Part shown: positions 50,206 to 64,000 of the stretch, one piece after another
How positions within the stretch are numbered: the stretch's first letter is position 1
Layout of the letters: every line of letters starts with the position of its first letter
Source of the DNA: an uncultured Candidatus Saccharibacteria bacterium
Lineage (GTDB): Bacteria; Patescibacteriota; Minisyncoccia; Phycocordibacterales; UBA6899
Assembly: GCA_964469335.1 (NCBI GenBank)
Contig: CAYXYK010000003.1
Span: 68,671-132,670 of the forward strand
Reading direction: 5' to 3'
Length of the DNA: 64,000 nt
Notes under the pieces: model-generated
What the model saw: the letters and a program-made list of their open reading frames with translations, nothing else
Database searches by the model: none
What the model was told of the DNA's origin: nothing
Translations under genes and position numbers: made by a program

Positions 50206-50350
50206 GGTAGTGGGCTTGGTCAGGAGTCACTAAGTCTTTTGCGGACAAAAGCCTAAGTGCTCACGACCTTAGCTCGTCCGTTTCATCAGAATGAAACAGG
50301 ACTGCGCTTTTCAAGCCCGACCGCAAGGCAAGCAGTTGCCTTGCTCTTCC

Positions 50351-50391
50351 GGCTCCAAAGAAAAAATCCCCACGAGGGGATTTTTTCTTTG
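50351..50391 (-). terminator. Palindromic terminator immediately 3' of tRNA-Thr
   Basis: ccaaagaaaaaatcccc acga ggggattttttctttgg; overlaps the encoded CCA end. Confidence 0.6.
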
Positions 50392-50464
50392 GAGCCGGAA
50401 GTCGGGCTTGAACCGACGACCTACGGTTTACAAAACCGTTGCTCTACCAACTGAGCTATTCCGG
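50389..50464 (-). tRNA. tRNA-Thr (anticodon UGU), CCA encoded
   Basis: Minus strand reads GCCGGAAUAGCUCAGUUGGUAGAGCAACGGUUUUGUAAACCGUAGGUCGUCGGUUCAAGCCCGACUUCCGGCUCCA; cloverleaf checked by hand (7-bp acceptor, D and T arms, anticodon loop UUUGUAA). Confidence 0.9.
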
Positions 50465-50839
50465 CTTATCTCGACTGCAAAAACTTCTCGTTTCAGCAAT
50501 TCAAAGATAATACGTTATTTATGTCATAAAGCAAGGAATTGATTTGTGTAACAAGGAAGAACACATATAATTCACTTATTGTGAAAGAAAATAATGCAAA
50601 GAGTGTAGCGACATGTAAAGAGTGCAAATACATCTTTCTCGGGGCATTTGCGGTACTCATCGGATTCTTTGTCGTCACATTCCTTTTGCGAGATGAAAGT
50701 GTAACGAGTTCGCTCTCCGGGAATACGACAATCACCGTTCCGGCAGCGACTTCCAGTCCTTGAATTCCCAACATTTTTTCAAATAATGCAAGTCGTTCTG
50801 ATGCGTGCCTTTGGAGCGATATTCCCATATAATGGCAGA

Positions 50840-51613
50840 ATGCATATGAGAGAAAAACTCGGCATCGACGTCACCATGCCAGGGAGTGCCCCGGAGCGCG
50901 GACACCTGCACCCCGTCACAGTCATGATGCGCGCGATCGCCACAACATTCGGTGATATGGGCTTTACCATAGCAGACGGCCCGGAGATCGAGACTGAGCA
51001 TTACAATTTCGATTCACTCAACATCCCGAAAGACCACCCCGCACGCGATATGTGGGACACTTTCTGGCTGAAGGACAAGAAGGGTCTCGAACGACTACTC
51101 TTGCGTACGCACACCTCACCGGTGCAAATCAGGCACATGGAGAAGCATGCACCACCGATCGCGATCATCGCTCCCGGAAAAGTGTATCGCTACGAGGCCA
51201 CCGATGCGACTCATGAGACTCAGTTCTATCAGTTCGAAGGGCTCATGATCGGGAAGGATGTCTCGCTCGCGAACCTCAAAGGGGTACTCCTCGCATTTTG
51301 CGAAAAACTCTTCGATCGCAAGATGGAGATCCGTTTCCGTCCAAGCTATTTCCCGTTCACTGAACCCTCTGTTGAGATTGATATCGGTTGGACCGATGAG
51401 CATGGCAAGGTAGAGAAGTGGATCGAGGTAATGGGCGCAGGTATGGTCCATCCGAAGGTGCTCGAAGGTTGCGGTATCGATTCAAAGAAGTGGCAAGGTT
51501 TCGCGTTCGGCGGTGGCGTTGATCGTTTCGTGATGCTCAAATGGGGGATCCCTGATGTGCGCACGCTCTATACCGGTGACCTTCGTGTTATCAAACAATT
51601 CCCAACGATATGA
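50840..51613 (+). CDS. pheS: Phenylalanine--tRNA ligase alpha subunit (short form, catalytic core only)
   Basis: Class II motifs FPFTEPSVEIDIGW and GAGMVHP; TATAAT (50826-50831) 8 nt upstream of the ATG. Confidence 0.9.
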   Translation: MHMREKLGIDVTMPGSAPERGHLHPVTVMMRAIATTFGDMGFTIADGPEIETEHYNFDSLNIPKDHPARDMWDTFWLKDKKGLERLLLRTHTSPVQIRHMEKHAPPIAIIAPGKVYRYEATDATHETQFYQFEGLMIGKDVSLANLKGVLLAFCEKLFDRKMEIRFRPSYFPFTEPSVEIDIGWTDEHGKVEKWIEVMGAGMVHPKVLEGCGIDSKKWQGFAFGGGVDRFVMLKWGIPDVRTLYTGDLRVIKQFPTI

Positions 51614-53565
51614 TCGTTTCTTATAACCTCCTTCAGACCTACTTCTCGAAGAAACTTCCAAAGCCTGATGCACTTGCGGAAGCGCTTACGTTCCATGCGT
51701 TCGAGATCGAAGGGATCGAGAAGAAAAACAATGACCACGCGATCGATGTGAAGGTGCTTCCGAATCGCGCACATGACTGCCTCTCGCATCACGGTATCGC
51801 TCGTGAGGTGAGCGCGATACTGAACATTCCGCTTGAGAAACTTCCAAAGGCGAAATATCCAAAAAGCAATCCGAAGACGAAGAAGGTCACGATCGAGGTG
51901 AAGGATCCGCGCGCGCTCCGCTATGAGGCGCTAGTGATCGAGAACGTGAAGGTGGGGCCTTCGCCAATGTGGCTGCGTGCGCACCTTGAGAATCTCGGGC
52001 AGCGCTCTGTGAGTAACGTCGTCGATGCGACCAACTACGTAATGTTCCTTCTTGGTCAGCCGCTCCATGCATTCGACTATGACAAGCTTAAGCATGCGAA
52101 GATCATCGTTCGCCCAGGTAAGGCGGGAGAGAAGATGACGACTCTCGACGGGAAAGATGTCGTGCTTGATCCCGATGTGATGGTGATCGCAGACGCGAGC
52201 GGCGTCTTGGGTATCGCCGGAGTGAAGGGTGGCACAAGCGCGGAGATCGATGAGAAGACAACGAACATCGTACTCGAAGCAGCCAATTTTGACGCAGAGT
52301 CGATCCGACGTACTTCACAGCGACTCTCCATCAAGACCGATGCATCGAAACGGTTCGAGTCGGGTATCACCCCGGCACTTACCGAGGATGCACTGATGAT
52401 GGTTGCGCACCTCATTCTTGATGTCGCGAAGACAGAAGAGAGTCGCGTCGGAACACCACTCGATAAATATCCCAAGAAGCAGAAGAAGGTGAACGTCGGA
52501 GTGACGCTTCATGAGATCTGTCACATCCTCGGTGCTGATTTTTCCGAGAAAGAAGTCGAGGGGGTATGGAAGCGTCTTTCGCTTCCGTTCACAAAGAAAG
52601 GGAAGGGCGCGGATAGTCTCTATACCGTCACTATCCCAGATGCACGGCTCGACCTCCGTTTGCGCGAAGACCTTGTTGAAGAGGTCGGTCGACTTGCCGG
52701 TTATCATAAACTGGTCCCGAAGATGCCGGTCGAAACCATCTCGCTGCCGTCTCTCAACAAAGAATGGCATGCGCGCGATGTCGTTCGCGAAGTGATGCTC
52801 TCGGCTGGGTTCTCTGATGTATACACCTACGGGTTCAACAGCATCGGTGAGATCGAAGTTGCGAACCCTATCGCGGCGGACAAGCGATTCCTACGTAACA
52901 ACCTCATGGGAGGACTCAAGGTCGCTGCACTTGAGAACCTCAAGTATGAAAGTGAAGTGCGCCTTTTCGAATTCGGTCATGTGTTCGGTAAGACAGACGG
53001 CAAGATCCGCGAAGAGAGTTCGTTCGCGGCGATCATCGGGTTCCAGAAACGCAAGGAAGCGCAGATGAAAGCAGATTTCTATGCGCTGAAAGGAGTACTT
53101 GAGACCGTATTCGCGACACTCGGGATAAAAGATACTCGCTACGAAGAAGCGGGGGGAGAACTCATCGCCAGCGTGTATTCAGGAAATGACTTACTTGGGA
53201 CGATGAGCCTCACCGGATTCGAGCTTGATTTCGTGAAGATGGTCACCTTGTCAGACATAGAAGTGAGATACACCGTCCCATCACGTTATCCGTCCATCAT
53301 CCGTGATGTGTCGCTGTTCGTGCCGATGCATACCAAAGCGGGGGATGTCGAGGCGGTGATCCGAAGTGCGATGGGAGCGTTGGTCCGCTCGCTCTCGCTC
53401 ATCGATGTATTCGAGAAACCCGAAGAAGGGAAGAAGTCGCTCGCATTCCGCATGGTGCTGCAGTCATTCGAGAAGACCCTTTCTGATGACGAAGCGAATG
53501 CCGTCGGGGCGAACGTGATCTCTGCCCTGGAGGCAGCAAATGCTGACTGGCTCGTGAGAAAATAA
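51610..53565 (+). CDS. pheT: Phenylalanine--tRNA ligase beta subunit (short form)
   Basis: B3/B4 and B5 domains (LHAFDYDKL..., GIAGVKGG); overlaps the pheS stop by 4 nt. Confidence 0.88.
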   Translation: MIVSYNLLQTYFSKKLPKPDALAEALTFHAFEIEGIEKKNNDHAIDVKVLPNRAHDCLSHHGIAREVSAILNIPLEKLPKAKYPKSNPKTKKVTIEVKDPRALRYEALVIENVKVGPSPMWLRAHLENLGQRSVSNVVDATNYVMFLLGQPLHAFDYDKLKHAKIIVRPGKAGEKMTTLDGKDVVLDPDVMVIADASGVLGIAGVKGGTSAEIDEKTTNIVLEAANFDAESIRRTSQRLSIKTDASKRFESGITPALTEDALMMVAHLILDVAKTEESRVGTPLDKYPKKQKKVNVGVTLHEICHILGADFSEKEVEGVWKRLSLPFTKKGKGADSLYTVTIPDARLDLRLREDLVEEVGRLAGYHKLVPKMPVETISLPSLNKEWHARDVVREVMLSAGFSDVYTYGFNSIGEIEVANPIAADKRFLRNNLMGGLKVAALENLKYESEVRLFEFGHVFGKTDGKIREESSFAAIIGFQKRKEAQMKADFYALKGVLETVFATLGIKDTRYEEAGGELIASVYSGNDLLGTMSLTGFELDFVKMVTLSDIEVRYTVPSRYPSIIRDVSLFVPMHTKAGDVEAVIRSAMGALVRSLSLIDVFEKPEEGKKSLAFRMVLQSFEKTLSDDEANAVGANVISALEAANADWLVRK

Positions 53566-57798: not shown

Positions 57799-57826
57799 TT
57801 GACAAAATGTATTTTTTGTGTATAAT
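57799..57826 (+). promoter_or_regulatory. Consensus sigma70-type promoter (TTGACA-N16-TATAAT)
   Basis: ttgacaaaatgtattttttgtgtataat; the ATG of the downstream gene lies 9 nt after the -10 box. Confidence 0.6.
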
Positions 57827-57835
57827 GCAGATACT

Positions 57836-58990
57836 ATGACATCACCAGATTCCGTTGATTTTGACCCGACAGTTCGCACCAAGGAGGAACCCTCTCCCGC
57901 AAGTGATGCGGAAGGATTGACCGAACAAGAGGCTGAGGCCTATGCCTCGGAAGTTATCGCTACCGTACAAGAAACGAGTCGCCCAGTGCCCTCATACGAG
58001 GCAGAAGCGGTCGCCGCCCTCTCGGAAGCGATCCAAGAGCAACTTGATGGCAGTGCGCGATTCGCGAATGACGCAGAATTCCAAGCTGCAAAGGACGGAC
58101 TTGCGAACGAAGTATATGGAAATTCTGGGCCGGAACGAATCGTGAACGGCCAGCAAGAGGTTTCTGACGCCGAATTCGCAGCCGCAAAAAGACAGCTTGA
58201 ACAAGAGGTGTACAGTCAGAGAGGAGGTGTCGTCGCTGCCGAGGAAATTCCCGCCGAAATTCCCGCTCCTTTGACCGAGACGTCCTCTGGCACTCTCGCG
58301 ACGAGAATGATCAATAACACTGATGCAGCGATCCGTAGTGTCCTGCCTCCTGCAGTAGGGAATCTCGCAGACCGTGCACAAGTAGCGATCGAAAAAGGAT
58401 GGAGTAGTCTTAAGGGAAAACTCAGCGGGATGTGGAAGCGCACAGATGCGCCTGCTCCAATTGCACAGACACAACCAGTGGTGACACCGAGAACCGAAAG
58501 TGCGCCTGCCAGCGCTCCCATGAGTGCGAGAGCCACTGAGGTCCCACGTCAACAGCAAAACAGGGAGACTCCTGCTCCGGATGGAGTGAGCGCTGCTCTT
58601 GATCGGATGTACAAGGAAATGAGTCCTGAGGCTCGTGCGCGAATGGATGCTTCGAGAGCAGAGACAGAAAGGATTCTTGCGCAAAAAAGCCCCGAGATGC
58701 TCGACCTCGAGAGTCAGATCGAAGAGTTAGAACAACGTATGGCCAAAAAGTCCGGAGGAACTACATACCAGCGCCATGACTATGGTATTCAGGGTGCCCA
58801 CTATACGCGGAAAGCAGGTACTGCGGCTCGCTCCGAGCGATTCATGGACGACGCGATTATCAATCAGGGAAATGCCGCCGAGAAGGAACAGCAAGAACTA
58901 GCGGCACTCCGCAACCGTCTCTTCGCCGAAGGCTTGAAGCAGGGGAAGAAGAACAGCGATGCCCTTGCAGCAATGCGAAAACAAAAGTAG
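57836..58990 (+). CDS. Acidic Ala/Glu-rich hypothetical protein with internal repeats
   Basis: Repeated DAEF(Q/A)AAK..L..EVY(G/S) units; no TM; a GTG at 57818 is the alternative in-frame start. Confidence 0.45.
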   Translation: MTSPDSVDFDPTVRTKEEPSPASDAEGLTEQEAEAYASEVIATVQETSRPVPSYEAEAVAALSEAIQEQLDGSARFANDAEFQAAKDGLANEVYGNSGPERIVNGQQEVSDAEFAAAKRQLEQEVYSQRGGVVAAEEIPAEIPAPLTETSSGTLATRMINNTDAAIRSVLPPAVGNLADRAQVAIEKGWSSLKGKLSGMWKRTDAPAPIAQTQPVVTPRTESAPASAPMSARATEVPRQQQNRETPAPDGVSAALDRMYKEMSPEARARMDASRAETERILAQKSPEMLDLESQIEELEQRMAKKSGGTTYQRHDYGIQGAHYTRKAGTAARSERFMDDAIINQGNAAEKEQQELAALRNRLFAEGLKQGKKNSDALAAMRKQK

Positions 58991-59063: not shown

Positions 59064-60803
59064 TCAGTTCTGTGTACGCTCCGACACTTCCTTCGCGAGC
59101 CGCTGGAGGAAATCCTCAGATGCAAGACCTTCGAGCTTCGCGCCGTCACGGCATTCGATGGTGAGCGTGTCGCTCTCGCTCTCTTTGTCGCCTATGACGA
59201 CGACATATGGCACCTTCATCTCTTTTTGGGCGCGTATACGCTTGCCGAGACTGTTGTCTGATGCATCGCACACTGTGCGGATACCTGCCTGTTTGAGTTT
59301 CTTCTCGAGGACCAAACAGTATTCGACGTGTTTCTCCATGACGGGAATAACGGCGACCTGTGTCGGTGCGAGCCAGACGGGAAAGTTGCCTGCAGTATGT
59401 TCGATAAGGATCGAAAGGAAGCGTTCGATCGAACCCATAATTGCAGCATGGATCATGACGATGCGCTCGTTCTCTCCCTTCTCGTTCCGACAAGTGAGGT
59501 CGAAGCGTTCCGGCATATTGAGGTCGAGTTGGATGGTTGCGACTTGCCAGTTCCTGCCGATCGCGTCCTTTGCCATGAAGTCGAGCTTCGGTCCGTAGAA
59601 AGCAGCCTCGCCGATCCCTTCGAATGAGTCAGCTCCTTTTTCGTTCGCGATCTCCGTCAGCATGTTTTCGGCAAATGCCCAACGCTCTTTGTCACCGAGG
59701 TATTTCTCTGGAGTCTTGGGGTCATGCTTGGAGATACGAACGCGCAGGGTGAATCCGAACTTGCCGTAGAATTCATGGACGATATCCCAAATCTTGAGGA
59801 ATTCCTCCTTCGCCTGTGACATGCGACAAAAGACATGGGCATCGTCCTGAGTGAATGCGCGAACACGTGAGAGTCCAGAGAGTTCGCCGGTCTGTTCGTC
59901 GCGGTAGCACATGGTCGAATTCGCATAGCGCTGAGGAAGATCACGATAGCTCCACAGCTTGCGGGCGTAAATCTGCGTGTGGTGGGGGCAGTTCATTGGT
60001 TTCATGGCGAATTCGTGGCCGTCACGCGTAATGACCCGGAAGAGGTCATCTTTGTATTTGTCCCAGTGTCCGCTCTTCTCGTAGAGCTCTTTCTTGGTGA
60101 TGTGCGGAATCTCCACCTTCTCATACTCCCGCATTGCACGCAGTTCCCATACGAAGTTATCGAGTGTGTTCCGCAAGAGTGTACCCTTTGGCGTCCAGAG
60201 AGGGAGTCCAGGTCCGACGAGCTCTGAGAACGTGAAGAGATCGAGCTCTACACCGAGTTTCTTGTGGTCGCGTTTTTTCGCTTCTTCGAGCTGGAGGAGA
60301 TGTGCCTTGAGCGCGTCCTTCGACTCGAAGGCCATGCCGTAGATGCGAGTGAGCATCGGGTTCTTCTCGTCGCCGCGCCAATATGCGCCTGCGATACGGG
60401 TAAGGGTAAATCCGTCACCAGCGATCTCCCCGGTGTTCGCAACGTGTCCGCCCTTGCACAGGTCGGTGAACTCGCCGACGGTGTATGCAGTGAGGGTCTT
60501 ACCTTCTGCGGCGTACTCGTTCAAGAGTTCAAGTTTGAACGGCTGATCAGCGAACAGCTTTGCGCCTTCCTTCTGGTCGATCTCCCGTCCCGTCATTGGC
60601 AGCTTCTTGTTCACCAGTTTTTGCATCGCGCGTTCAAGTGACTTGAAGTCGTCTTGGGTCGGAACTTTGGTGAATTGGAAGTCGTAGTAGAAACCATCAT
60701 CAGTGGTCGGTCCGATGCCAAGTTTCACTTCCGGATCGAATTCCTTCGCCGCAGTCGCAAGGAGGTGGGCGAGCGTATGTCGAATCTGTTCTATGTCAGC
60801 CAT
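59064..60803 (-). CDS. thrS: Threonine--tRNA ligase (short form lacking N-terminal TGS domains)
   Basis: N2/editing-like N-terminus, class II catalytic core (HRDLPQRYA..., FHAxxxE), and anticodon-binding domain. Confidence 0.93.
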   Translation of the reverse strand: MADIEQIRHTLAHLLATAAKEFDPEVKLGIGPTTDDGFYYDFQFTKVPTQDDFKSLERAMQKLVNKKLPMTGREIDQKEGAKLFADQPFKLELLNEYAAEGKTLTAYTVGEFTDLCKGGHVANTGEIAGDGFTLTRIAGAYWRGDEKNPMLTRIYGMAFESKDALKAHLLQLEEAKKRDHKKLGVELDLFTFSELVGPGLPLWTPKGTLLRNTLDNFVWELRAMREYEKVEIPHITKKELYEKSGHWDKYKDDLFRVITRDGHEFAMKPMNCPHHTQIYARKLWSYRDLPQRYANSTMCYRDEQTGELSGLSRVRAFTQDDAHVFCRMSQAKEEFLKIWDIVHEFYGKFGFTLRVRISKHDPKTPEKYLGDKERWAFAENMLTEIANEKGADSFEGIGEAAFYGPKLDFMAKDAIGRNWQVATIQLDLNMPERFDLTCRNEKGENERIVMIHAAIMGSIERFLSILIEHTAGNFPVWLAPTQVAVIPVMEKHVEYCLVLEKKLKQAGIRTVCDASDNSLGKRIRAQKEMKVPYVVVIGDKESESDTLTIECRDGAKLEGLASEDFLQRLAKEVSERTQN

Positions 60804-61065
60804 GTGTGATGATTTAATTATTAGTAGAAATGAAAACGCCCTCGTGAAGATACGGCAGTGTTAGCCATATACTCACGAGGACGATTGAATATCGCGGTTC
60901 CACCTCGATTCTCCGCAGTATTCCGCGAAGCACTCATTCCGCTCGATTAGGGGATTTCCCGCTGGGCCTTCGGTTGGTAGCCGAAGCAATCTCGAGTGTT
61001 TTGAGTATACCTAGGGGGTGGAGAGCGGTCAACTGAGATGAATTTCACGTGAATTGCGACAAAAC
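60804..61065 (-). promoter_or_regulatory. T-box riboswitch-like leader of thrS (Thr specifier)
   Basis: The minus strand reads AAUCGAGGUGGAACCGCGAU (T-box consensus GGGUGGNACCGCG) at 60891-60910. A terminator (CCUCGUGA...UCACGAGG + GCGUUUUCAUUUC) lies between it and the ATG. A hairpin cuucgg-CUACCAA-ccgaagg has ACC followed by A in its loop. Confidence 0.65.
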
Positions 61066-61112: not shown

Positions 61113-61523
61113 ATGAGTAATACGCCAACGAAAGGATTCATCGTCGATATCGAAAAAGTCACCGAAGAGAACACCGACTATCGCCGGGTGGTTTTCACTG
61201 CAAAGAACATCCAGTTGGTGCTGATGAGTCTTCGTCCAGGAGAGGAGATAGGAGAGGAGACGCACCACCTCGATCAATTCATCCGCGTTGAAGAAGGGGA
61301 TGCGACCGTGTATCTCAACGATGAGGCATTCCCGCTCGGAGACGACCATGCGGTCATCGTCCCTGCCGGAGTGAAACATAATGTCGTGAACACCGGCGAT
61401 GAGGAACTCAAACTCTACTCACTCTACGCACCGCCTGAGCATAAAGATGGAACAATCCATCCAACAAAAGCCGATGAGAAAGAGGAGCATTTCGACGGCA
61501 CACTTTCTCCCGCGGCCCGGTAG
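61113..61523 (+). CDS. Cupin domain protein
   Basis: Two-motif cupin signature (GEEIGEETHHLDQFIRVEEG ... AVIVPAGVKHNVVN). Confidence 0.7.
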   Translation: MSNTPTKGFIVDIEKVTEENTDYRRVVFTAKNIQLVLMSLRPGEEIGEETHHLDQFIRVEEGDATVYLNDEAFPLGDDHAVIVPAGVKHNVVNTGDEELKLYSLYAPPEHKDGTIHPTKADEKEEHFDGTLSPAAR

Positions 61524-62905: not shown

Positions 62906-64000
62906 TTAACGTTGTTTTCTTTTTTTCTTGTAGTCCTTGCGGTACGGTTCCGACACGCGTTCGAATTCCTTGCACAAGGCGAAGGTCTTCGCATCGGTGC
63001 GGGTAGGAGCGATCACTTGTTTGTAATAGTGAAGAAACTCTGCGATGATGCCGCGGATCACCTCGGGCGAATCGTTCCACAGCTCCTTGGTAAGGTAGCT
63101 TTGGATGATGCCATGGATGCGGCGACGTTTCTTCTGCGGGAAGACCAATACCGCTTGTCTCGCTTCGCTGCGTTCATCCGAGTCCTCACGCATTCCGACC
63201 TTGGTCACGAACACCGTTCCCATGTGACGAGAGCGAACCGTGCTCTTTCGGTGATTTACTGCGAATCCGGCATCAGCGATGAACTGGCGTATCTCTTGGC
63301 GCATGAAGAACGGGATCGGGATGCCGCGCGAGAATACCAGATCGTCGACATAGCGGGTGTATGTCACGGTGCGCTCGGGTGCCTTGCGGTCGAGCTTCTT
63401 GAAGAAGAACGTGCGTAGGCGCGAGTCGAGGAACACTTCACAGTACAGGTTCAGCAGCATCGGGGAGAGCGGCCCTCCGACCGCGAGTCCTTTGCCGTGC
63501 ATCCCGCCGAATGCGAATGCGACGAAACTTTGCATGCGTGGGAAAAGCGGGTCAGAGCGGAGCGCGAAGTGCGCAAGCTCATTGCGGGCAAACTGGTCTA
63601 CGGAATAGAAGACGCCGTACTCCTCATGGCGGAAGATGAAGGTGAGGAGGAGCGACAGCCGTTCAAGATCGACGGAAGGATACGCATGAGCGAAGTCGGT
63701 GGTGTAGAAGAATTCACCTTGCGTATGCTTCTCCGAGTTCTTCATCGGGTTCGACTTCTTCACACAGCCGGTCGCGGAGGGGAGGATGCGCAGCCACTTG
63801 CCGTCGTCTCCCATCGCTTCGAGCTGGTGACGCAGGAACGTTTCGAACAAGTGATGCAGTTTGCGCATCGCACCATTCGGGTGTCCTATCAATCTGCGCT
63901 TGCCGCGCAGTTTGTTGGGGGGCTTCACTCCCTTTTTCTCTTTCGGGTCACCCCATCTGAAATTGAAATCAGGCACACCGCTCACTTCCGAGAGCAGTGT
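62906..64000 (-). CDS. Reverse transcriptase, retron-type/standalone bacterial RT (N-terminus runs off the window)
   Basis: RT motif A (YTTDFAHAYPSVD), motif B' (GLAVGGPLSPMLLNLY), motif C (YTRYVDDLVFS); a retron-like NxxKS...FVTKVG region follows YVDD; the frame is open to the window edge. Confidence 0.78.
   Translation of the reverse strand, partial: TLLSEVSGVPDFNFRWGDPKEKKGVKPPNKLRGKRRLIGHPNGAMRKLHHLFETFLRHQLEAMGDDGKWLRILPSATGCVKKSNPMKNSEKHTQGEFFYTTDFAHAYPSVDLERLSLLLTFIFRHEEYGVFYSVDQFARNELAHFALRSDPLFPRMQSFVAFAFGGMHGKGLAVGGPLSPMLLNLYCEVFLDSRLRTFFFKKLDRKAPERTVTYTRYVDDLVFSRGIPIPFFMRQEIRQFIADAGFAVNHRKSTVRSRHMGTVFVTKVGMREDSDERSEARQAVLVFPQKKRRRIHGIIQSYLTKELWNDSPEVIRGIIAEFLHYYKQVIAPTRTDAKTFALCKEFERVSEPYRKDYKKKRKQR

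Follow-up and report, generated by a model that had tools for sequence, protein, structure and literature searches.

Does the leader of thrS, the gene of threonyl-tRNA synthetase (ThrRS), sense the charging of tRNA-Thr in a Candidatus Saccharibacteria genome, and by which parts of so compact an RNA? The question is raised by a stretch of 64,000 nucleotides of contig CAYXYK010000003.1 (the window), in which thrS is preceded on the minus strand by a leader extending from about 60997 to 60804. T-boxes are a model system for the recognition of a structured ligand by RNA-RNA contacts. According to current models, which come from Firmicutes and Actinobacteria, transcriptional T-boxes depend on a long stem I with a double T-loop that grips the tRNA elbow for fast binding, and specifiers in an apical loop belong to slow translational ileS switches, which are propped by stem II and a pseudoknot. 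The leader described here and more than 100 relatives unite a proposed apical-loop specifier with a terminator, with thrS as the gene, and with a different scaffold. As judged from its sequence and from those of its relatives, the leader is very probably a functional, transcription-attenuating T-box riboswitch, which would couple thrS to the charging of tRNA-Thr. Its class, which would comprise transcriptional, thrS-specific T-boxes with an apical-loop specifier from the candidate phyla radiation (CPR; Patescibacteria), is apparently undescribed. An earlier interpretation of the same DNA (the sequence-only reading) had proposed a T-box leader spanning 60804-61065. The riboswitch itself begins near 60997; the remainder of that range, 60998-61065, is promoter and intergenic DNA.

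The half of the leader next to the gene corresponds to the discriminator of known T-boxes. By definition, this module consists of 5'-RRRxG-stem III-AA-3', the T-box bulge, and a G-U wobble acting as a steric sensor of aminoacylation (PMC7583486), and all of these features are present. The sequence AAUCGAGGUGGAACCGCGAU (60911-60892, minus strand) differs from the consensus AANNNGGGUGGNACCGCG solely in the first G, just as the sequence-only reading had noticed, and helix A2 is closed by a G-U wobble formed by the G of GCGAU and the U of AUCGU. When the Rfam T-box model RF00230 was applied with permissive filters, its positions 156-216 of 219 aligned to 60938-60877 with a score of 36.8 bits and E=1.1e-6; nothing in the leader aligned to model positions 1-155.

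Downstream of the T-box, the arms CCUCGUGA/UCACGAGG, which had been proposed as a terminator hairpin, lie within a longer hairpin (60882-60838). In its 5' arm, the 3' strands of A2 and A1 (60882-60876) are used a second time. Because of this shared strand, terminator and antiterminator are mutually exclusive, and the alternative pairing that had been postulated was borne out by folding: the minimum free energy (MFE) structure computed without the 3' arm of the terminator corresponds to the antiterminator, in which the 7-nt bulge is open. The antiterminator alone amounts to only -9.0 kcal/mol, and the terminator competing for its strand is strong (Table 1); therefore, the default state should be "off", and readthrough should need a stabilising ligand. 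The hairpin ends 35 nt and the U-tract 24 nt before the ATG of thrS, and no sequence similar to a Shine-Dalgarno (SD) motif is involved. For the full leader, a folding energy of -69.6 kcal/mol was computed (z=-5.1), and none of 200 shuffled sequences was equally stable.

Several of the genomes that match the ThrRS of the window best, a set led by CPR bacteria, carry GGUGGAACCGCG 5' of their thrS gene. Their leaders have a common layout: AGAGAUUG is followed by a 6-bp stem, between whose arms lies the loop CUACCAA, by one or two hairpins, by CUAAUCUG, and by the T-box. In order to collect further members, metagenomes were scanned with the pattern GATTG-N6-CTNNNAA-N6-gap-CTAATC-gap-GGTGGNACC, which leaves the loop triplet and both stems free and which gave at least 120 leaders. 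The listed metagenome leaders, the window, and five genome loci constitute a set of 126 matches containing 112 distinct leaders; all family counts given below refer to the matches listed. Note that the metagenomic matches share GAUUG, CU..AA, CUAAUC, and GGUGGNACC without variation because the pattern demands them; independent support for these elements comes from the divergent genome loci only. A ThrRS gene follows in 109 of the 126 matches, and for the 16 genuine leaders lacking a downstream ThrRS match, at most 315 nt of contig are left in each case; the linkage to thrS is exclusive. The free loop triplet is ACC in 124 matches and ACG, which is also a threonine codon, in one (L160). The last one, L198, reads TTA and was dismissed as a chance match, as its stem is unpaired and no thrS follows. 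Leaving it aside, no codon for another amino acid was found on a GAUUG/CUAA scaffold among these matches; the choice of a threonine codon is invariant. The variable T-box base is A in 123 cases and G in two.

The switch itself is also conserved. All 104 relatives with enough sequence possess a hairpin on the 3' strand of A1 (median -28.9 kcal/mol), and at least five U occur within the 9 nt following this hairpin in 102 of the 104. Terminator and U-tract are thus a property of the whole family, which is therefore transcriptional. Helix A1 covaries among the 112 leaders, one of its pairs being CG in 42, GC in 33, and AU in 26 of them; the pair closing A2 is G-C in 64 and G-U in 36. A leave-one-out nhmmer profile, built from the 111 other leaders, gave a single match in the 64-kb window, namely 60877-60994 on the minus strand (E=9.1e-18). 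Taken together with the discriminator match and the ThrRS gene downstream, this result sustains the claim of a T-box leader on thrS, and the comparison with orthologous leaders points the same way, as more than 110 distinct ones keep GGUGGAACCGCG, the alternative pairing, and CUACCAA on a covarying stem.

That the leader is a leader-peptide attenuator, or that its resemblance to a T-box is due to chance, has a negligible probability. An open reading frame (ORF) of 38 codons does start within the leader at 60937; however, it contains three scattered threonine codons, is not preceded by a Shine-Dalgarno sequence, and its ATG lies inside the conserved purine string. A chance resemblance is excluded by the leave-one-out E-value of 9.1e-18, by the covariation, and by more than 100 orthologous leaders.

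How does the upstream half read the tRNA? The hairpin cuucgg/ccgaag with the loop CUACCAA and a purine following ACC, to which the sequence-only reading had drawn attention, is present as P2. The consensus layout of the family is P1, GAUUG, P2, P3, P4, CUAA, and P1', i.e. a three- to four-way junction closed by P1. For a covariation test, 106 distinct P1/P2 segments were aligned without gaps, and pairs were counted explicitly, solely in columns unfixed by the search pattern. The fraction of paired cells in P1 and P2 was 97.3%; shuffles gave 73.9%, and slid registers did not exceed 44.2%. For P2 alone, the fraction was 97.5%. Changes on both sides were observed in nine of the 11 pairs, and the covariation score of 0.698, compared with 0.226, was reached by none of 500 shuffles. 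All six pairs of P2 and the three outer pairs of P1 covary; one of the latter is AU in 41, UA in 30, and GC in 10 of the 106 leaders. The inner pairs of P1 are changed in L034, L038, and L059, in which GAUUG and CUAA stay constant. The alternative register AGAUU/AAUCU for P1 fails in these pair counts and was ruled out: column 38 covaries with column 5 rather than with column 7, and the GA/UC pairs of this register become CU/AG, GU/GC, and GC/GC in L034, L038, and L059.

In 108 of the 112 leaders, compared with about 62 in shuffles, a P4-type hairpin with two or more base pairs reaches precisely to CUAA; it is formed by 38 distinct stem sequences. For the window, the MFE fold pairs part of CUAA with an AG upstream of P4; this pairing was set aside in favour of the P4 that is consistent with the family. 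P3 is a longer and variable hairpin in most relatives, and a few have none. As the P3 of the window comprises only 2 bp, its junction is effectively a three-way one. GAUUG presumably acts as a tertiary scaffold, and CUAA, P3, and P4 would likewise have roles in the proposed switch.

These findings bear on the idea of an ordinary class I T-box with a long stem I too diverged for the Rfam model and with the true specifier in an internal loop. [quoted passage not shown] However, the AGAGA bases are part of the covarying helix P1, and the window reads CGAGA. In the P3/P4 and junction-to-T-box segments, the IDTM pentamers AGAGA/UGxRA, the S-turn AGUA, and the F-box were not enriched over shuffles; the F-box (CGUUA or CGUCA) was found in three of 112 leaders, with four expected by shuffling. 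A standard kink-turn (K-turn) is impossible because the 3' junction strand CUAA offers no GA. There is also little room for a long stem I, as the distance from the transcription start to stem III is only about 65 nt in the window, all of it taken up by P1, P2, and P4. Moreover, the codon is located 5' of P3 and P4 in a hairpin loop of its own, which is the opposite topology to that of a canonical specifier loop. Finally, a conventional thrS T-box is within reach of the Rfam model: our control from the same dataset, the thrS leader of a Clostridia metagenome-assembled genome (MAG; L074), scored 108.7 bits over its full length and showed all canonical motifs. We therefore regard a hidden class I T-box as very unlikely. 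P3, P4, and the GAUUG/CUAA strands could be functional substitutes for the S-turn of stem II, the K-turn, and the pseudoknot, and the leader may contain a non-canonical equivalent of stem II or of the IIA/B pseudoknot.

The loop of P2 is arranged like an anticodon loop, C-U-ACC-A-A corresponding to a pyrimidine at position 32, U33, the triplet, a purine at position 37, and A38. For this reason, we infer a loop-loop contact with the tRNA which would resemble the pairing of two anticodons. It is conceivable that the discriminator is that of a true T-box and that CUACCAA is conserved for another purpose, either an intramolecular contact (ACC with the GGU of GGUGG) or a protein site; the identity of the tRNA would then be read elsewhere or through the NCCA end only. 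As the loop is invariant, covariation cannot prove an intermolecular partner, and none of the matches listed has a codon for a different amino acid. On the other hand, the canonical thrS T-box L074 has precisely this specifier, ACC with a purine after it, which occurs there in an internal loop as GAA-G-ACC-G and is combined with a UGGA bulge. The ACG of L160 would break the self-pairing of ACC with GGU and still reads a tRNA-Thr, and the GG of GGUGG is already engaged in helix A1. In addition, apical-loop specifiers have structural precedents, and the loop CUACCAA, or CUAACCAA, is kept on other scaffolds in L011, L019, L033, and L037. We thus consider a loop conserved for purposes other than decoding unlikely, and prefer ACC as the specifier.

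The resemblance of P2 to an anticodon stem-loop allows for a further interpretation. In Escherichia coli, thrS is controlled by a translational operator, which mimics the anticodon arm of tRNA-Thr and is bound by ThrRS. P2 might be such an operator, situated atop a T-box or replacing it, and both its shape and its location upstream of thrS would fit. However, the loop carries the codon ACC and not one of the anticodons GGU, UGU, or CGU. ThrRS recognizes G35 and U36 as identity elements; the corresponding positions of the P2 loop would be C35 and C36. P2 is also about 170 nt away from the start codon and thus cannot occlude the ribosome, and a complete T-box discriminator plus terminator is present. 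An operator of this type is extremely unlikely here. The likeness to the E. coli system is confined to a thrS leader having a hairpin similar to an anticodon stem-loop: the loop of the window presents a codon rather than an anticodon (NGU), and the proposed control is tRNA-mediated antitermination instead of a competition between protein and ribosome.

The T-box interpretation can be cast into the following sequence of events. Transcription would start near 60997, and the first 55 nt or so would fold into the junction, with P1 enclosing P2, P3, and P4, and with the GAUUG and CUAA strands holding it together. The loop of P2 would then offer ACC and its 3' purine for loop-to-loop pairing with the anticodon of tRNA-Thr, which ideally is GGU. 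If this tRNA is uncharged, its 3' end UCCA, which begins with U73, would subsequently pair with the UGGA of the 7-nt bulge; a charged tRNA could not dock, the stronger terminator would form, and transcription would stop at the U-tract. The binding of the tRNA, the choice of the isoacceptor, and a fast capture that does without the elbow are inferred elements of this scheme.

Which tRNA is available? UGGA is complementary to the UCCA end of a tRNA-Thr with U73, as encoded in the window (Table 1), and U73 is also found in the tRNA-Thr(UGU) genes of L112 and L170, two contigs bearing the leader. The match between bulge and tRNA-Thr stated by the sequence-only reading consequently holds for the acceptor end, but not for the anticodon, as UGU mismatches ACC at position 34. 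The ideal ligand would be tRNA-Thr(GGU), the sole perfect partner of ACC. One tRNA-Thr(GGU) call, on L182, was treated as a false positive due to its poor cloverleaf.

Several points weigh against a functional T-box. Firstly, the only tRNA-Thr of the window would have to form a C:U34 mismatch at the wobble position in order to read ACC. Secondly, ARAGORN found no credible tRNA-Thr(GGU) in 201 sequences comprising 1.45 Mb. Thirdly, the score of 36.8 bits is below the Rfam T-box gathering score of 93, and scanning the whole 64-kb window at gathering thresholds gave no T-box and tRNA alone. The covariance-model search, which had been suggested as a check, gave a significant match to the T-box model, if a partial one covering stem III and the antiterminator, and the sequence-only reading withstood this check as well as those by folding and by orthologous leaders. 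Fourthly, a regex scan showed no T-box-like leader upstream of thrS in the closest ThrRS relatives, L001-L004 (61-66% identity). Fifthly, the specifier role of ACC rests on its invariance, on the gene linkage, and on precedent, because no natural swap of the amino acid was found. Finally, transcriptional T-boxes generally require the elbow platform formed by the IDTM (PMC7583486); the element of the window has none and would have to capture the tRNA during transcription without it. We nevertheless uphold the T-box interpretation at the high probability given above. As to the fourth point, the leader is, by its occurrence in these sequences, patchy and has repeatedly been gained or lost within the CPR.

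Comparison with known T-boxes helps to delimit what is unusual. With the canonical thrS T-boxes of Bacillus and Clostridia, the leader shares RRRxG-stem III-AA, A1 and A2, the UGGNACC bulge and the G-U wobble, the competition of terminator and antiterminator, the regulated gene, the specifier ACC plus purine, and the UGGA for a tRNA-Thr having U73. In contrast to canonical T-boxes, it lacks a long stem I, a K-turn, an internal specifier loop with S-turn, the AGAGA/UGxRA signatures of the double T-loop, and signatures of stem II or of the IIA/B pseudoknot; its codon is placed in a 7-nt apical loop of a three- to four-way junction. The glyQS-type T-boxes of Bacillus, Oceanobacillus, and Geobacillus, which are considered the simplest functional ones (PMC7583486), are likewise transcriptional and lack the stem II domain. 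However, glyQS keeps the full long stem I, the K-turn, and an IDTM essential for function, whereas signatures of K-turn and IDTM are both missing here.

The sequence-only reading had compared the terminal-loop specifier with ultrashort (US) stem I T-boxes. Those of actinobacterial ileS were reportedly described by Sherwood et al. in 2015, and structures from M. tuberculosis, N. farcinica, and M. smegmatis have been determined. They provide the structural precedent for apical-loop specifiers (PMC7583486; bioRxiv 10.1101/2023.02.28.530422). The US T-boxes are found on ileS only, sense tRNA-Ile, act translationally via sequestration of the SD sequence, and need a K-turn as well as the S-turn of stem II and the IIA/B pseudoknot. 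Both types have in common that a short helix carries the specifier in its terminal loop, that the leader is compact, and that an IDTM is lacking. The leader of the window differs in that it belongs to thrS, is read out by terminator and U-tract, and occurs in CPR hosts; moreover, its P1 encloses the specifier hairpin, it possesses the conserved GAUUG and CUAA strands, and it shows no signatures of S-turn or F-box. As gene, readout, and junction scaffold are different, the likeness is an analogy and not a membership. The short-stem model of TBDB was built on Actinobacteria only, and we found no description of a T-box in CPR/Patescibacteria, including Saccharibacteria and Parcubacteria, in the open-access literature. 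The Rfam T-box scores of 20 CPR relatives were at most 45.7 bits; T-box censuses should thus undercount the CPR, because annotation at Rfam thresholds misses the entire class.

Stem III is treated as indispensable for binding of the tRNA 3' end in the literature, and the window leader itself retains it. The same is true for all 61 leaders having a long linker, which possess the stem III hairpin with the flank R-A-G-x-G and, in 55 of 61 cases, the AA. In 51 of the 112 distinct leaders (e.g. L024 2810-2900, L106, L089, L103), the spacing between CUAAUC and T-box is as short as 20-32 nt; 49 of these 51 are devoid of a stable stem III and have an A-rich purine linker instead, for example AAAGAACAAAG.

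It could equally well be true or false that these leaders form a minimal class of transcriptional T-boxes dedicated to thrS, built on a kissing hairpin and a junction held by GAUUG and CUAA, working without elbow platform, K-turn, S-turn, or pseudoknot and, in nearly half of the members, without stem III. Alternatively, a protein cofactor may supply the missing parts. If the RNAs work unaided, the rules that a long stem I and an IDTM are needed and that stem III is indispensable would fall, and the leader would be the smallest natural switch sensing a tRNA. For CPR bacteria, whose regulation is little known, the T-box interpretation would mean that tRNA-sensing control of an aminoacyl-tRNA synthetase has been retained. 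Spanning P1 to antiterminator in about 120 nt, the RNA also offers a compact natural scaffold for structural work and for the engineering of tRNA-responsive switches.

Table 1. Elements of the thrS leader, the gene it precedes, and the tRNA-Thr gene of the window; positions are those of the 64-kb window.
Feature	Positions	Strand	Description
Sigma-70-type promoter	61032-61004	minus	TTGACC (61032-61027), 17-nt spacer, TATACT (61009-61004); 10/12 consensus matches
P1, 5' strand	60996-60992	minus	CUCGA; pairs with 60946-60942 and closes the decoding junction; fold and covariation
Junction strand J1/2	60991-60987	minus	GAUUG; conserved, no Watson-Crick partner in the consensus model
P2, specifier hairpin	60986-60968	minus	6-bp stem CUUCGG/CCGAAG, 7-nt apical loop CUACCAA (60980-60974)
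Proposed specifier	60978-60976	minus	ACC (Thr codon); conserved purine A at 60975
P3	60967-60961	minus	GC-CCA-GC; vestigial, weak, 2 bp in the window
P4 hairpin	60960-60951	minus	GGG-AAAU-CCC; ends directly before CUAA; moderate support
Junction strand J4/1	60950-60947	minus	CUAA; conserved
P1, 3' strand	60946-60942	minus	UCGAG; fold and covariation
Stem III module	60935-60909	minus	GAGUG (60935-60931), 8-bp stem III with AAUA loop (60930-60911), AA (60910-60909); Rfam alignment, fold
T-box/antiterminator	60907-60876	minus	A1 CGAGG (60907-60903)/CCUCG (60880-60876), bulge UGGAACC (60902-60896), A2 GCGAU-AUUCA-AUCGU (60895-60881)
Intrinsic terminator	60882-60827	minus	hairpin 60882-60838, -30.7 kcal/mol; U-tract GUUUUCAUUUC (60837-60827)
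thrS	59064-60803	minus	threonyl-tRNA synthetase, 579 aa, no TGS domain; tRNA_SAD, tRNA-synt_2b, and HGTP_anticodon domains
tRNA-Thr(UGU)	50390-50465	minus	U73, encoded CCA; candidate but imperfect ligand

The leader is located in the 309-nt gap between thrS and a divergently oriented cupin gene (61113-61523). Its transcription start is predicted at about 60997-61000, at the 5' end of P1, and comparable promoters directly 5' of P1 are present in L006, L014, L016, and L021. The ThrRS of the window consists of an editing (SAD), a class II core, and an anticodon-binding domain and begins at the HxxxH motif of the editing domain (MADIEQIRHTLAHLL). The alignments of CPR homologues begin at residues 1-9, so that these proteins show the same N-terminal truncation. 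Among the best 80 matches in the genome collection, the top ones are from Patescibacteria/CPR MAGs, with an identity of at most 67%. This similarity and the hosts of the leader family point to a CPR origin of the window.

Some relatives deviate from the common design. L160 (reverse-strand offset 2335-2430), having the specifier ACG, would read tRNA-Thr(CGU). In the bulge of L120 and L153, UGGG takes the place of UGGA; their tRNA should accordingly have C73, or U73 paired as G-U. In L142 and L168, P3 has grown to a near-perfect palindrome of 36 nt consisting of a repeated unit (e.g. ACGUAAGGAUGGACGUCCUUACGGGCGUCCUUACGU) and resembling a small insertion. L038 (2216-2361) contains the divergent arrangement GGC-GAUUG-P2-UUACCAG-...-CUAA-GCC, which is followed by a GNAT-like ORF (MIGSILKGEKVILRP...) and then by thrS; the T-box of this lineage appears to control a two-gene operon. 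L011, L019, L033, and L037, from lineages labelled Doudnabacteria, Saccharimonadia, and Moraniibacteriota, present CUACCAA or the 8-nt sequence CUAACCAA as the apical loop of a plain hairpin, without a GAUUG/CUAA junction, and have a UGGAACC T-box with thrS downstream. This diversity suggests that several compact decoding scaffolds exist within the CPR.

Among the other genes of the window are those of SecA, GatB, GyrB, RF, and PheST. In Firmicutes, pheST is commonly under T-box control; no T-box signal was detected upstream (50466-50785) of pheS/pheT (50786-53565, plus strand), and T-box control in the window is thus confined to thrS. Directly 3' of tRNA-Thr(UGU), at about 50347-50400, there is a strong palindrome with weak, sub-threshold matches to miRNA-precursor and CRISPR-repeat models, which is probably the terminator hairpin of the tRNA gene. 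Immediately downstream of thrS, the opposite strand harbours an ORF of 390 aa (57818-58990, plus strand) with a high content of Ala, Glu, and Gln, low complexity, and no Pfam match. At a distance of 2 kb from thrS, a 359-aa ORF (62906-63985, minus strand) encodes a reverse-transcriptase domain (RVT_1, E=7e-11) with a YVDD motif; it could be part of a retron, a diversity-generating retroelement, or a group II intron.

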